From positions 30,434 through 48,828 of the forward strand of contig CAYWJO010000025.1 in NCBI GenBank assembly GCA_964458565.1: a stretch of DNA of 18,395 nucleotides, given 5' to 3'. Of the stretch, positions 3,652-18,395 are shown one piece after another; the first letter of the stretch is position 1, and each line of letters opens with the position of its first letter. Position numbers and translations under genes: made by a program. The DNA comes from an uncultured archaeon (lineage in GTDB: Archaea; Asgardarchaeota; Thorarchaeia; Thorarchaeales; Thorarchaeaceae). A model generated the notes under the pieces. It saw only the letters and a list, made by a program, of their open reading frames with translations. It did no database searches and was not told the origin of the DNA.

Positions 3652-5751
3652 TTACCACTTATCATTAATGTATTCAGATGCCTTGTCTGTATCCAAATGT
3701 TGAGTTCCACTCGAAGTTCTATGCCCGAAGAGTGTTTTCTGTGTTTTTCTTAGTTCCTTTAATGAATCCGGAATTTTAACAAATGCAGGTTTTGTTGCTT
3801 TTTGGACTTTCACATGACAAATCAATTTTCCTCTAACAAACTTAAACTGAACATTGAAGAAATCTAAATACATCTCTCCGATGAATTTTCGAACAATATC
3901 TGTTAATCTTAGGTTAAATCCATCCGAATTTTGTTTGTTCCTTGCAAGGGTTTTGAGATCACGCTGTATGCCTAAAACATGTCCTTCATTATTCACTCCA
4001 ATTAGTAGATTACCACCTTTATCAGTGTTCATGAATGCTGCAATAGCATCTGCAACTTTGAATTCAAGAACTGGATTTGGTGTCTTAGTTTCATAGTCGT
4101 AACGGAGTGATGCCTTAAACTCACAAAACTTGTTTTCACCCTCACGTATGAGCCGATAGATTGGTGCGTCAATAGGCTCGCCAAAAAGAGTTTCTAGGAT
4201 TCTTTCAAATCTAACTGCAAGAAGTGTGCAAGAGCCTTTATCCTTCCCACCAATTGTCCATTTTATAACAAGTTTATCTTCATCCAATGTGTTTGGAATG
4301 ATAGTCATAATATAATATATTGCTGCTTTACCATTCCATGAGTAAACTCCGGACCATTTAGATGCTGAAATAAATGGTATAGTTTCTACAAGAGTCTGCG
4401 TTAAATGAAAATGTGCATTTTTCTTAACACGGATAGACCATTCTTCATCAATTCTGTTATTCTTTATTTCTTCTTTGAGCTTTGTTGGAAATGTTAGATT
4501 TTCAGGGAAATAGTCTGGAAATAATCTCAGATCATTATGACGAATACAGAATCCATATCTTGTGTAAATCTCGTCTAAAATATCAAGATATTCTCCCAAT
4601 TTGGGATATTTTCTTTTCAATTCAGTCATGCTGAGAACGCCATTTGATGCACTAGCTAAAATTGGAATTTCTGATCGGAGATTGTTAAAAGCTTCATCAT
4701 TAATAATAATCATGTCAGATTGTTCAGGATAATATTCAATTCCGCCCTCAGTAGAGAGATTGCTTATCAAGAATCGTGCATGCTCTTTTGGTATGGATGT
4801 TGAATATTCAGAGTTGTATCTATCAACAAGTTCGTCCAAAGTTATTTTTGGAATTCTCTCATCAGCAAGACTCTCCAATATTTGACGAATTCTGTCAGCG
4901 CTTTCTAGTCGAATTATTAGACCTGCATTATCCCAATCAATCAACTGTAAAATCCGATTTTTTAGGACATTAATATTGGTTCCATAAAGAGGACAAGCTT
5001 TAACGTAATCAACTATTCGACCTGACTTAATCAAATCATCCATTTTTGACTTTGCTCGGGATTCATCCATCTCATTATCTATGAATGTTTCTACAAAAAT
5101 TATCTTCTTTGAAATAGTAATAGACTCTTCAATATCTTCAAGTGTGGTCAATGCTCTATCAAGAGTTGTTTTATCTGTTTGCTTGAAGAATATCAAAATT
5201 AATTCGGAGTCGAATAGAAATGGGATGAAGGTACTCATAACAGCTTGTTGTCCACCATGGTCATGAAGAATTATCCGATGATTTGTACTGCAATCTAAAT
5301 CAAGATTCCAAGTCCAAATCTTCTTTCCGAATGTAGATTGTTCAGATCCAGGAGTCCCAGCTATGAGTTGATTGCATAACGTTGATTTTCCAGAACCAGT
5401 ATGCCCAATTAAACTAATTTTCTGATGTTTGAATTTAATTGATTCAATTGGAACTTTTATTTTCGAGATGCTCTGGCGGTAGAATCCACCTGGAGTTAGG
5501 TAGAGCATTGTGTTATTATAAACCCAAATTCCTACACAATGAACCTCTTGAATTCTCTCAGCAGTGCCAGTAGCTATATCAAACTGAATTATCTCGCTTT
5601 TTGTCCCTGCAAATACTGTTGCACCATCTTCTGAGAATGTTACACAGCGTCCTTGACCAGTAGCGAGGCTTGCACGAAAAGCAGGTCTAAATATTGGGTC
5701 ATCCGATTTCTCATCAGCTTCATAATATAAGATGTCACCCGTATCTGTCAC
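3652..5751 (-). CDS. Roc-COR GTPase with C-terminal Schlafen/AlbA_2 domain and N-terminal beta-propeller remnant; probably 5'-truncated
   Basis: P-loop GHTGSGKST, G2 STFG, Roc-type G3 HDHGGQ, G4-like ETFID, then a COR-like region (A.FLISNLSTEGGIEYY). AlbA_2 motifs GENKFCEFKAS and IAAFMNT.KGGNLLIGV. WD40-like blade (CVTFSEDGATVFAGT...IIQFDIATG). Frame stays open to 5826 without an ATG. Confidence 0.8.
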   Translation of the reverse strand: MTDTGDILYYEADEKSDDPIFRPAFRASLATGQGRCVTFSEDGATVFAGTKSEIIQFDIATGTAERIQEVHCVGIWVYNNTMLYLTPGGFYRQSISKIKVPIESIKFKHQKISLIGHTGSGKSTLCNQLIAGTPGSEQSTFGKKIWTWNLDLDCSTNHRIILHDHGGQQAVMSTFIPFLFDSELILIFFKQTDKTTLDRALTTLEDIEESITISKKIIFVETFIDNEMDESRAKSKMDDLIKSGRIVDYVKACPLYGTNINVLKNRILQLIDWDNAGLIIRLESADRIRQILESLADERIPKITLDELVDRYNSEYSTSIPKEHARFLISNLSTEGGIEYYPEQSDMIIINDEAFNNLRSEIPILASASNGVLSMTELKRKYPKLGEYLDILDEIYTRYGFCIRHNDLRLFPDYFPENLTFPTKLKEEIKNNRIDEEWSIRVKKNAHFHLTQTLVETIPFISASKWSGVYSWNGKAAIYYIMTIIPNTLDEDKLVIKWTIGGKDKGSCTLLAVRFERILETLFGEPIDAPIYRLIREGENKFCEFKASLRYDYETKTPNPVLEFKVADAIAAFMNTDKGGNLLIGVNNEGHVLGIQRDLKTLARNKQNSDGFNLRLTDIVRKFIGEMYLDFFNVQFKFVRGKLICHVKVQKATKPAFVKIPDSLKELRKTQKTLFGHRTSSGTQHLDTDKASEYINDKW

Positions 5752-15252: not shown

Positions 15253-15315
15253 GGGTCGGTGGTCTAGCTACCATATCAGAATTTCTGCTCTGGCTAGATT
15301 GGTATGATTCTTGGT
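15253..15315 (+). tRNA. 5' half of a tRNA-Pro gene with a 30-nt BHB intron at position 17/17a (15270-15299); 3' half absent (pseudo- or split tRNA)
   Basis: Removing 15270-15299 gives GGGTCGGTGGTCTAGCTTGGTATGATTCTTGGT, the typical tRNA-Pro 5' half. The intron boundaries form a central helix CTAG/CTAG, 3-nt bulges CTA and ATT, and an inner helix CCA/TGG. No anticodon 3' strand or T-arm follows. Confidence 0.7.
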
Positions 15316-15404
15316 ATAGGAACACTTATTCTCTTTCGACCTTTGTTCTTATTGTAATTTGAAACACAAATGCGTTCATGAATCAGCAATTGAGGGATAA
15401 ATTG

Positions 15405-18325
15405 ATGATTGATATCTATAGTAGTGATAGTCAGCCAAATCCACTTGACGATATAATCATTGATTATCTATTAGGACAAAAAACGAAGGACCTCGGCTTG
15501 ATTTCAAATATGAAATAAATATCCAAAAAGGAGAAGATTTCCCAGAGATTGCGAAGGATCTTTTCGCTATGTCAAATTATGGTGGGGGCTATATAATTGC
15601 AGGGGTCAAAGAAACGCCAACAGGTACGTTTGAATTTATTGGACTTCCAAAAGGATTCCATATAGACCAGGCAGTTATTCAAGAGAAATTCAATTCATAT
15701 TCCTCAACTAAAATTCAGATTTTCTATACCGAACCAGAGAGAGAAGTTGATGGGGAAGTTCGAAAGTTTCCAGTTATTTATGCTCCACCATCAAAAGGCT
15801 TCTTGGTGCCATCAAAAGATGGAGAGTATAAAAAAAGTACAAAGAATAGAATTGCTTTTAGAATAGGCCAGTTATTCATCCGACGTGGAACTCAAAGTGT
15901 TCCCGCAACAAGTGAAGAGATTAGTAGAATATCAGAAAGAATAGCTAATCAAATTCTAAAACCATCTTTGCTATCTGGAAATCCTGATTCGGTTAAGGAG
16001 ATTCTATTTGGTAACTTTCTAAAAGTAAATCGCTTACCACCGAATATCTATATAGGTAAAGCTTTTCCAAAACGAAAAGAAACGGAGAAACAATATAGGT
16101 TCCCAGGTCCACATGTTGTTGTCGATGGATACTTCTATTCTTTTTTGGATCTATCACGACCGGGATTTCAGAATCGTGTGATTCAGGATTCTATTACTCA
16201 GTTAAAGACTGATTCAATGCTCGATGAAGAAGCAGACCAAGACATAATTATCAGATTGTTGAACAATGAGATTAGAAACGCGGGTCGTCATCTAGGTTTG
16301 TACTATCAAAAGAGGAAGGTCTCTATGTACTTTCCAGTCCGAAGCAAAGGTGACAGTTTTAGAAAAAAACAATGGCCTGGAAGATATCGAAGGTCAACTC
16401 GTACTGTTGCCAAGAAATTTACCCATAAAGGAAAGTCACGTTATTCTCATCCTGCAGTTCAGTTTAGATTTGCTTTTGTTGGTGACGGATTATATCTTCA
16501 AGTTCTTCCTAGATTTGTCCTTACACTTGATGGTTTTGAACCAATTAGTGATAGTGACTCTGGACCAGTTATTACCAAGCTATCATATAGACAATATAAT
16601 ACTCAATATCTTCTGAATATCTTATTCTGGATTTCCATATTACCGAGAAACTCACAAGGAATGATTGAATTAGATGAACGGATTGGTATATCAGACGAAT
16701 TAGTTCAAACAGTTATTGATGTGGGTATTCAAGAGGATCTACCTGTAACAACCCAAGCAAAAGAATTGGAAGAACATTATGTTGATGTTGTTAAACCGCG
16801 TCGTCCAAAGTTTCAAGCAACATATCTTGGCGAGCCAGATTTGATGTTTGGGCATGGAGGTGTTGAGAAGGATCCAAGAATCGGAATGAAGGAATATGGT
16901 CCGTATGAAGATTCTGATGGAACTCCATCTCTGTCACAGATACGTATTGGTATTGTAGGAACAGGACAAAGTATACAGCATGCTAAGAGTGTCCTTGCTA
17001 TGCTAGGTTCCAAGATAGATTCTCCTAAAGCAAACAAATGGTTGTTCCCTTCGTTTCCTGGTTTTAGTCGTAACAATCCTATTGATTGTGAGATTATTCA
17101 TTCGCCAAATTGGATAGCACGAATTCCTAAGGCTAGAATAGAACGAGTACTTCAAGTTGCAGATGTAAATCAACGAATCGCCGATGCTGCAAGTCTATTT
17201 ACCGAATACGCTTCCAAGATAATGATGGAAGATTCTCCTCCAGCTGTTTTAGTTTACGCACTTCCAGAGGAGATTGAGGAATACTGTGGAATATCAAAAA
17301 GAACCAGAGGCGCAAAACGTCCCAAGTTTAGTGAAGAAGAGAAAAGAAAACAAAAATTGGTAGAAACGGGACAAACATTCCTAACTGAATGGGGATTTGC
17401 CATTGAAGATGATGTGGATGATGTACCCCGAAGCTATGATTTGTGGGCAGCTCTGAAAGGACGTGCTATGGATCTAAATGTTCCAATTCAAATAATGCAA
17501 GAAAGTACATGCAGTGCAATCCTGAATTATTCAGAATCATCGGGTGATGTCGAGCCTCCATCAACCTATGCTTGGAATCTCTCGACAGGTCTCTATTACA
17601 AAGCTAGTGGGAGACCATGGCGCCTTGCAAAACTTACTCAGGGAACATGTTATGTTGGTATTTCCTTTTACAAAAGTCGACATGAAGTAGATGAAAAATT
17701 ACGTACCGCGATGGCTCAAGTGTTTACACATAGTGGGGAAGGATTTGTTCTCAGAGGTGGAGAAGTAAAGATTCAAGAGAGTACTAAAGAAGCTCATTTA
17801 GGTAAACAACAAGCATCTCTACTAATTGAAGAAGTAATAGAAAAGTTCACTAAACGTACTGAGGCTCCACCCTCAAGGGTAGTTATACATAAATCATCTT
17901 TCTTTTCAGAGGAGGAACGTGAAGGGTTTTCTGAAGCAATTGGAAACATACCTGTAGATTATGTATCCATACAGACATGGTCCAGATTTCGATTTCTTCG
18001 AAGTGGAAAATATCCCGTTCTTAGAGGAACTTTAATTTCCCTCACTCCAAATGATCATCTACTATTCACTCATGGCTACTCTCCAAGGTTGAGATCATAC
18101 CCAGGACATCGAGTGCCAACTCCTTTGTTAATTCAGCATAGTGGTGATACTGAAATAGGAATAATTAGCAAAGAGATTCTTAGTTTGACAAAACTAGATT
18201 GGAATAGTACTGCATTCAATAAGAAGGTGCCAATTACACTTGCATTCTCTAGAAAAGTAGGATTGGTCCTAGCCGAGTTTCCTGAGGATATGAATGTAAA
18301 AAATCATTACAAGTATTATATGTAA
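15405..18325 (+). CDS. ago: Schlafen(AlbA_2)-APAZ-short prokaryotic Argonaute fusion (catalytically inactive PIWI); 1-nt frameshift at A6 run 15478-15483
   Basis: AlbA_2: NEGPRLDFK...EIAKDLFAMSNYGGGYIIAGV...FIRRGTQS. APAZ-like from ~15995: EILFGNFLKV..LP.NIY...LQVLPRFVLTLDG...YN.QY...ILFWISIL. Short pAgo from ~16811: EPDLMFG...DPRIG...YGPY, IRIGIVGT, FPSFPGF, LKGRAM...PIQI, WNLSTGLYYKASGRPW, CYVGISFY, VVIHKSS, RGT, LTKLDWN...PITL. The track ORF 15569..18325 lacks the first Schlafen motif, and one extra A gives a 973-aa protein. Confidence 0.88.
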
Positions 18326-18342: not shown

Positions 18343-18395
18343 TGGTGGGCCGGAGGCGATTTGAACGCCCGATCCCGTGGATCCGAACCACGAAT
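18343..18395 (-). tRNA. tRNA-Pro(CGG), 3' portion (5' end outside the window), CCA encoded
   Basis: Reverse complement: anticodon arm CGTGG-TTCGGAT-CCACG, short variable loop GGATC, T arm GGGCG-TTCAAAT-CGCCT, acceptor strand CCGGCCC-A-CCA. Confidence 0.9.

Follow-up and report, generated by a model that had tools for sequence, protein, structure and literature searches.

Can one archaeal polypeptide combine a Schlafen nuclease with a short Argonaute, and is the copy described here still in use? The question is raised by a DNA stretch of 18,395 nucleotides from an uncultured archaeon of the Thorarchaeaceae (GenBank assembly GCA_964458565.1, contig CAYWJO010000025.1, positions 30,434 to 48,828 of the forward strand). 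This whole stretch is called the window below. A gene near its 3' end encodes a Schlafen (SLFN)/AlbA_2 domain, an APAZ region, and the MID-PIWI part of a short prokaryotic Argonaute (pAgo). The reading preferred here, with a probability of roughly 0.6, is that the gene represents the single-polypeptide form of an archaeal Schlafen-APAZ/short-Argonaute defence system. Such a protein would act as a guide-triggered tRNase when intact, and the copy in this genome has most likely been inactivated recently. An initial annotation, made from the letters of the window, had proposed a guide-activated RNase of new architecture. The logic of that proposal fits the results given here; its novelty was overstated, and the frameshift in the gene was given too little weight.

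The gene lies on the plus strand. A stop-free frame of 953 codons covers positions 15464-18322 and ends at a stop codon at 18323-18325; the residue numbers used here refer to this frame. The APAZ region and the Argonaute are in the same frame, with no stop codon between them. Pfam and PADLOC searches gave the order SLFN/AlbA_2, APAZ, and MID-PIWI short pAgo from the N-terminus. This bears out the SLFN-APAZ-MID-PIWI order proposed earlier (Pfam SLFN_AlbA_2; PADLOC APAZ and pAgo_I). The motifs quoted at that time were also all found: NEGPRLDFK (E8-x4-D13-F-K15), AMSNYGGGYIIAGVKE, CYVGISFY, and RVVIHKSS. The full-length AlphaFold2 (AF2) model had a predicted local distance difference test score (pLDDT) of 79.6 and a predicted template modelling score (pTM) of 0.76. 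The parts of the protein are as follows.

15485-15907, plus strand: predicted Schlafen/AlbA_2 nuclease domain (Pfam PF04326, AF2, Foldseek)
15485-15508, plus strand: E8, D13, K15 motif (motif reading)
15563-15589, plus strand: Schlafen-box-like FAMSNYGGG (motif reading)
15938-16759, plus strand: APAZ region (PNTD1-PNTD2), residues 159-432 (PADLOC, phmmer)
16760-16813, plus strand: flexible linker between APAZ and MID (pLDDT < 50 for residues 426-448; alignment A4)
16814-18322, plus strand: short pAgo (MID-PIWI), residues 451-953 (PADLOC pAgo_I, phmmer, Foldseek)
17444-17602, plus strand: MID 5'-phosphate pocket W661/K665/Q676/K713 (mapped onto CrtAgo H207/K211/Q222/K263)
17657-17668, plus strand: GISF, residues 732-735, at a canonical PIWI Asp position (motif reading)
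17888-17899, plus strand: HKSS, residues 809-812, at a canonical PIWI Asp position (motif reading)

The Argonaute half is covered end to end (residues 451-953) by the PADLOC model pAgo_I, with an E-value of 1.3e-140. The best phmmer matches in the PDB were all short pAgos of 470-540 aa, as listed here.

9om4_B, SPARHA: E 1.5e-67
9qbp_B, SPARDA: E 1.1e-63
9jsb_A, SPARDA: E 1.5e-61
9qbl_B, SPARDA: E 9.3e-60
8ifk_B, 8j8h_A, 8qlo_B, 8fex_B, and 8j7s_A, SPARTA: E 1.6e-52 to 2.9e-45
8in8_C, SIR2-associated: E 5.4e-25, the weakest Argonaute-chain match

Superposition of the full-length AF2 model on the SPARHA, SPARDA, and SPARTA Argonaute chains gave target-normalised template modelling (TM) scores of 0.82-0.88 in Foldseek. 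The protein contains MID and PIWI domains without an N or PAZ domain, and the region upstream is APAZ, not PAZ. The DEDX tetrad is absent from the PIWI domain. Ser occupies both canonical Asp positions in the window protein, and no family member has Asp at either one, the positions being those of the generally known GxD and RDG motifs and not of an aligned active pAgo. This agrees with the non-catalytic PIWI domain of the initial annotation. Catalytic substitutions of this kind are carried by all short pAgos (Ryazansky 2018). The MID domain contains the pocket for the guide 5' end (H/Y/R-K-Q-K), which in CrtSPARTA is formed by H207, K211, Q222, and K263 (10.1101/2023.07.12.548734). Residues K665, Q676, and K713 align to CrtAgo K211, Q222, and K263, and are invariant in the family.

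An APAZ domain lies between the effector and the Argonaute. The PADLOC Aga_SIR2/REase/TIR-PNTD1-PNTD2 models match residues 159-432, with E-values from 1.4e-27 (best) to 1e-9. The phmmer search of the PDB found the solved HNH-APAZ chain 9om4_A (E 2.5e-11, residues 176-396). The identity of the middle region, which had been singled out for checking, is thus confirmed. The flexible linker that follows is located where gene 1 stops and gene 2 starts in the split relatives (alignment A4).

The N-terminal half belongs to the AlbA_2 fold. Pfam SLFN_AlbA_2 (PF04326) matched residues 8-148 with an E-value of 1e-7 and 33-34.6 bits, against a gathering cut-off of 25.3. The AF2 model of residues 1-165 had a pLDDT of 91.8. 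A Foldseek search of the PDB with this domain model gave 34 first matches that were all of the AlbA_2/Schlafen fold (E 1e-5 to 6e-3, TMq 0.39-0.56), as was every match at E < 0.01. They include the SAMD9 tRNase domain (9o0d, 7ksp), DIP2311 (3lmm) and 2kyy, which are uncharacterised AlbA_2 proteins, and SLFN11, SLFN5, SLFN13, SLFN14, and SLFN12. The fold test suggested for the N-terminus therefore came out as predicted. Eight residues (E8, D13, K15, N38, G40, G42, R140, and R141) are invariant across 19 family members; the catalytic E-x4-(D/E)-x-K motif and the Schlafen-box glycines are both present. The E(x)4(D/E)xK motif and the Schlafen box were identified as catalytic by Kuzmenko et al. (bioRxiv 10.64898/2026.05.29.728809). 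The Ex4(E/D)xK motif was also identified as catalytic by Perez Taboada et al. 2026, where Argonaute is not mentioned. From these features, the domain is predicted to have metal-dependent tRNA/rRNA endonuclease activity. A homodimer prediction with two copies of the domain (alignment A6) scored 0.17 against a mark of 0.42, which gives no answer and is not evidence either way.

A scan of the GTDB species genomes identified relatives that align over the whole length at 43-50% identity. They were found in Bathyarchaeota, Ca. Methanoperedens, ANME-1, Archaeoglobus, Thermoplasmata, Woesearchaeota, and Nanoarchaeota. Nearly all of them are encoded by two overlapping or abutting genes in different frames, an SLFN-APAZ gene of 465-500 aa and a short pAgo gene of 500-540 aa. 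At E <= 1e-30, an exhaustive HMMER search with residues 1-450 gave 45 cluster representatives. Most of them have lengths of 450-560 aa, and only two are longer than 900 aa. A single open reading frame (ORF) was found only in the window, at locus L005, in five other genomes of the same family, and in one Bathyarchaeota lineage (L018, P0006/P0007). The fused form is thus a lineage-specific minority of the SLFN-APAZ/pAgo family. One of the five genomes (G313, protein P0005) is labelled Candidatus Thorarchaeota at NCBI, which fits the Asgard host suggested earlier; Thorarchaeota lie within the Asgard kingdom Promethearchaeati. None of the other short pAgos in Asgard genomes is paired with an SLFN-type APAZ protein. 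Among the non-SLFN partners sampled overall, the domains found were TIR, SMEK, DUF4365, or Mrr.

A few loci of the family deserve separate mention. At L042 5869-8848 (Thermoplasmata MFD00008.bin.2.88), the SLFN-APAZ/pAgo locus is split into pieces of 437, 330, and 284 aa, and is apparently decaying. Inspection by eye of L025 1451-2719, L027 1863-2498, and L042 4280-5635 found ORFs resembling type I restriction-modification (RM) specificity subunits and DNA methylases. The position of two-gene operons beside such RM-like ORFs in ANME-1, an unclassified metagenome-assembled genome (MAG), and Thermoplasmata suggests a defence-island context.

A quick tree built from the Argonaute halves placed every SLFN-linked pAgo in one clade, with a Shimodaira-Hasegawa-like approximate likelihood ratio test (SH-aLRT) support of 100. 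This Argonaute-only tree left open a single origin of the fusion. In the careful full-length tree, the fused Bathyarchaeota pair was placed beside a split Bathyarchaeota operon with support of 98/98. A single origin was rejected, as the approximately unbiased (AU) test excluded one fused clade with p = 0.02, for a fused group that was named only after the first tree had been seen. Because of this test and the placement of the Bathyarchaeota pair, the phylogeny indicates that fusion, or fission, happened at least twice. A bacterial single ORF of 946 aa was also noted at L056 2363-5200 (Aurantimonadaceae MAG CANJKV010000150.1), with a short pAgo at residues 459-946. Its N-terminal half is not Schlafen, and this fused APAZ-pAgo falls outside the SLFN clade.

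The closest known relatives are the two-gene SLFN-APAZ and short pAgo operons of archaea. Examples are found in Ca. Methanoperedens nitroreducens NZ_JMIY01000004.1 (L024), ANME-1 (L025), Bathyarchaeota (L019, L020), and Thermoplasmata (L030), and also in DPANN. They contain the same three modules in the same order, with the same invariant E-x4-D-x-K, and their Argonaute halves are 46-50% identical to that of the window protein. However, these operons consist of overlapping or adjacent genes in different frames, whereas the window protein is one ORF with a linker of about 20 residues.

Among solved structures, the S2B-type SPARHA (9om4) and SPARDA (9qbp, 9qbl, 9vx1, 9jsb) provide the closest Argonaute chains (E 1e-67 to 1e-60, TM 0.84-0.88). 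In both systems an inactive PIWI sensor activates an N-terminal effector on the APAZ protein, as is proposed for the window protein. However, their effectors are DNases (HNH; the PD-(D/E)XK nuclease DREN) and they are two-protein heterodimers, whereas the window protein carries an SLFN_AlbA_2 domain and is fused with its Argonaute. It may therefore work similarly without being a member of either system. The SPARSA systems of clade S1A share the one-chain layout of effector, APAZ, MID, and PIWI. However, SPARSA carries a SIR2 NADase as effector and an Argonaute of a distant clade (8in8 E 5e-25, versus 1e-67 for S2B-type), and the Pfam search found no SIR2 match in the window protein, which places it outside SPARSA. 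In the survey of Ryazansky 2018, all 106 fused short pAgos formed one monophyletic branch, and 102 of the 106 had SIR2.

RzAgo (Runella zeae) is also a single chain with an N-terminal Schlafen domain and a catalytically dead Argonaute. Its guide RNA and target DNA license tRNA cleavage and abortive infection (bioRxiv 10.64898/2026.05.29.728809). However, RzAgo is a long-B pAgo of 1071-1187 aa with PAZ, and it has a GHKL ATPase (PF13749) for ATP-dependent tetramerization in place of APAZ. The window protein has an APAZ segment after the Schlafen domain, has no PF13749 match, and groups with the short pAgos; it does not belong to the SLFN-pAgo group of Kuzmenko et al. 2026. The eukaryotic and bacterial Schlafen tRNases (SLFN11, SLFN13, SAMD9, bacterial Slfn) share the fold and the catalytic motif with the window domain at 12-19% identity. 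Several of them are immune effectors that cut tRNA after a trigger. However, the mammalian SLFNs have two lobes in one chain and a helicase domain, and their trigger is not an Argonaute.

These comparisons suggest how an intact protein might work. By homology, the MID-PIWI/APAZ body would be a guide-loaded, non-cleaving sensor of the SPARHA/SPARDA/SPARTA type, with the Schlafen domain in precisely the position of their enzymatic effector. With support from APAZ, the MID-PIWI half would bind a small 5'-phosphorylated guide, probably RNA. The loaded protein would then scan for complementary invader nucleic acid, probably single-stranded DNA, which the Argonaute half would not cut. The guide-target duplex might drive a conformational change and oligomerization, as in SPARTA, SPARDA, and SPARHA, so that the N-terminal Schlafen domains would be paired into an active E-x4-D-x-K metal-dependent RNase. 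Assembly of the nuclease would presumably be driven by APAZ or Ago, as in SPARDA filaments. The RNase would cleave tRNA (or rRNA), translation would stop, and abortive infection or dormancy would follow. RzAgo, a SLFN-GHKL long-B pAgo, cleaves tRNA only when guide RNA and complementary DNA are present and its Schlafen domains are paired, and this cleavage is abolished by D32A in the E(x)4(D/E)xK motif (bioRxiv 10.64898/2026.05.29.728809). Bacterial Schlafens are trigger-activated, oligomerizing tRNases (PMC13056530, in the summary given by PMC13434031).

Whether the window copy could work in this way depends on its first codons, which contain the following features.

15405-15482, plus strand: first 26 codons (MIDIY...LLGQK), in another frame than the rest of the gene (translation matches the N-termini of the intact homologues P0004-P0008)
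15478-15483, plus strand: A6 run with a one-base frameshift (the same in the window and L001-L004)
15569-18325, plus strand: ORF as called from the sequence, 918 aa, with an ATG start and without the E-x4-D-x-K strand (ORF listing)

A Shine-Dalgarno-like GAGGG motif lies upstream of the ATG at 15405. Insertion of a single A, or a -1 shift once AAA (15480-15482) has been read, would lead to ...GQK-NEGPRLDFK and a protein of 973 aa. The homologue P0004 (78% identity) also has 973 aa; it is intact, and its N-terminus matches the 26-codon segment. The frame-corrected length given by the initial annotation was therefore right. In the long frame, the check for alternative starts found no ATG, GTG, or TTG before 15569. 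The ATG at 15569 is downstream of the E-x4-D-x-K motif, which in the window copy can be reached from a start codon only through the frameshift. The DNA of P0004 (L005) reads CAAAAGAGCGAA at the place of the A6 run, and is in frame and intact. The frameshift is not conserved, as all homologues examined are in frame, including the closest ones (78% and 56% identity). The A6 run is identical in five assemblies: the window MAG, JGI 3300031585, JGI 3300031360, SRR8557365, and SRR9710542. Besides the MAG, these are two JGI metagenome assemblies and two Logan assemblies of SRA runs (L001-L004); the identical 918-aa product was called on the four other contigs.

With the A6 run one base short, the full-length protein could be made only by rare -1 slippage. 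Otherwise, the expected product is a short peptide, plus at most a truncated protein from the ATG at 15569. This truncated protein is predicted to have no nuclease activity, because E8, D13, and K15 are missing. Comparison with L005 gave dN/dS (non-synonymous to synonymous substitution rate ratio) values of about 0.07 in every domain, with dS saturated. The 26 upstream codons differ from L005 by 13 synonymous and 4 non-synonymous changes. Because of these two results, purifying selection appears to have acted on the gene during most of its history, and the lesion seems to be a recent one. The frameshift is most likely a real, recent inactivating mutation.

Alternatively, the gene might be fully functional, with the A6 run serving as a recoding or phase-variation site at which -1 ribosomal or transcriptional slippage yields a low, controlled dose of a toxic 973-aa effector. 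The -1 shift after AAA (15480-15482) would give the exact homologue-like junction GQK-N-EGPRLDFK, and tRNA-Lys could re-pair perfectly on A-AAA. The remaining 2.9-kb frame is stop-free, and the excess of synonymous changes in the upstream codons is also in favour of a functional gene. However, the frameshift is kept in none of the homologues examined, and in the zero frame the site does not have the form of a canonical X-XXY-YYZ heptamer. Folding of the 77 nt after the A6 run found no unusual RNA structure (z = -0.44). Six A residues are also a short run for transcriptional slippage, as for systematic Illumina error. Such recoding is therefore considered unlikely. A bolder combination seems improbable: the fused protein would be a self-contained guide-programmable tRNase with an ATPase-free, APAZ/Argonaute-driven assembly, still used in the window genome, where the A6 run would hold down the dose of the toxic effector by -1 slippage or as a phase switch.

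Another alternative concerns the Schlafen domain itself. The AlbA_2 domain might be a nucleic-acid-binding module for guide/target handling or regulation, so that the protein binds or silences without collateral RNA cleavage. AlbA_2 has long been annotated as a DNA-binding domain (Ryazansky 2018), and some of the Schlafen-fold matches have been described as DNA/RNA-binding, such as SLFN5 and the SAMD9 DNA-binding domain 7ksp. However, the invariance of the E-x4-D-x-K triad and the Schlafen-box glycines across the 19 members argues for an enzyme. The domain also sits where every characterised APAZ protein has an enzymatic effector (TIR, SIR2, DREN, HNH), and catalysis by RzAgo, SLFN11/13, and bacterial Schlafens depends on the same motif. 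A purely binding role is hardly probable.

The least probable alternative is an assembly or sequencing artefact in an organism with an intact 973-aa gene: a one-base change in a homopolymer is characteristic of such errors and the rest of the gene is intact, but the same A6 is present in the MAG, the two JGI assemblies, and the two Logan assemblies of separate SRA runs, is short for such an error, and is accompanied in a collection of 5.8 billion proteins by the 918-aa call, with no near-identical 973-aa allele.

Several points weigh against a guide-triggered tRNase whose window copy has been inactivated. The five assemblies are possibly not all independent, as the JGI assemblies may have been built from the reads of these SRA runs. 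No lesion besides the frameshift was found over the 953 codons and the 5' segment still looks selected, so that a dead gene is not proven; low-level -1 slippage may occur on A-AAA-AAC. The first residue of the MID pocket is W661 in the sub-clade of the window protein, and H or R in most other members. No Pfam match to PF13749 (GHKL ATPase, HATPase_c_4) was found in the window protein at E-values up to 1, so its assembly route must differ from that of RzAgo. The searched literature contains no experiment on any SLFN-APAZ/short pAgo system, fused or split, so that substrate, guide type, and phenotype are extrapolations.

The surroundings of the gene are marked by two tRNA features.

15253-15320, plus strand: remnant of an ancestral tRNA-Pro(CGG), 5' half, broken by a 30-nt insertion (aligns to positions 1-33 of the intact tRNA-Pro)
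18343-18395, minus strand: intact tRNA-Pro(CGG), inverted relative to the remnant and cut by the window/contig end (17 nt after the stop codon; ARAGORN on L001 and L002)

Rfam and ARAGORN searches of the window gave no match, the tRNA being cut by its end. ARAGORN identified the complete tRNA-Pro at L001 4469-4545 and L002 3997-4073, and the same tRNA lies at the end of contig C47 (L116 14189-14265). In the window genome, the tRNA half lies downstream of a metallophosphatase gene. In seven of nine family relatives, the orthologue of this gene has an intact, same-strand tRNA-Pro(CGG) about 50 nt after it, at the place of the tRNA half. At L104, the tRNA-Pro is followed by a convergent DUF2122 RecB-family nuclease and then a C5 DNA methylase. 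The order in the window genome, rebuilt from contig C47 and the bridging contig L002, is tRNA half, Argonaute gene, inverted tRNA-Pro(CGG), a 599-aa ORF, DUF2122, and methylase. The C5 cytosine DNA methylase (PF00145) and the DUF2122 RecB-family nuclease (PF09895) are located at L116 10562-12128 and L104 2453-3818, and the pair is kept beside the tRNA-Pro in both genomes. At L110 and L114, a similar methylase-like ORF was recognised solely by its sequence motif. The nuclease-methylase pair resembles a type II RM-like module at a tRNA-linked hot-spot. The insertion that contains the Argonaute gene is thus about 5 kb long, disrupts an ancestral tRNA-Pro site, and has an RM-like pair as its neighbour. 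Such a context fits a horizontally acquired defence gene. The inverted orientation of the tRNA-Pro does not fit a simple duplication of an att site.

The 599-aa ORF (L116 12326-14125, G000 contig C47) is convergent with the Argonaute gene across the tRNA. It had no Pfam or PADLOC match, and no homologue at any other SLFN-pAgo locus fetched. A multi-gene system was considered and rejected, as the neighbourhoods of the fused P0005, P0007, and P0008 share nothing and the 599-aa ORF is absent from the other fetched loci. The protein appears autonomous, because no neighbour is conserved among the fused homologues.

A second Schlafen protein of 699 aa is encoded at 3652-5751 on the minus strand of the window, with a Roc/Ras GTPase domain at residues 111-260 and SLFN_AlbA_2 at 539-685 (E 7.5e-12). 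A shared origin of the two Schlafen domains was rejected, as BLASTP of the Argonaute fusion against the Roc-GTPase protein found nothing.

The architecture is less new than first proposed. Schlafen/Alba-APAZ is named among the short-pAgo partners in the introduction of bioRxiv 10.1101/2023.07.12.548734. Kuzmenko et al. list the Schlafen-APAZ pairing in their Fig. 1e without further study (bioRxiv 10.64898/2026.05.29.728809). The two-gene form is usual and the fusion a minority. No characterisation of SLFN-APAZ or Schlafen-APAZ was found in the literature. The principle that an Argonaute triggers a Schlafen tRNase is already demonstrated in the 2026 preprint, in a different fusion (long-B SLFN-GHKL-pAgo). 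The window gene is therefore a fused, lineage-specific variant of a catalogued, uncharacterised system, possibly inactivated here.

In summary, the characterised short Argonaute effectors are NADases (SPARTA, SPARSA) and DNases (SPARDA, SPARHA), and no study of an RNase-armed system was found; the Schlafen-APAZ family would be the RNase-armed case. The single-chain form would be the simplest biochemical construct, and a programmable sensor that reports through its RNase might be made from it. For experiments, intact homologues from other archaea, two-gene or fused, offer a better start than the frameshifted window copy. In archaea, Asgard lineages among them, the Schlafen-APAZ family would join Argonaute and Schlafen, two immune modules that eukaryotes also have.

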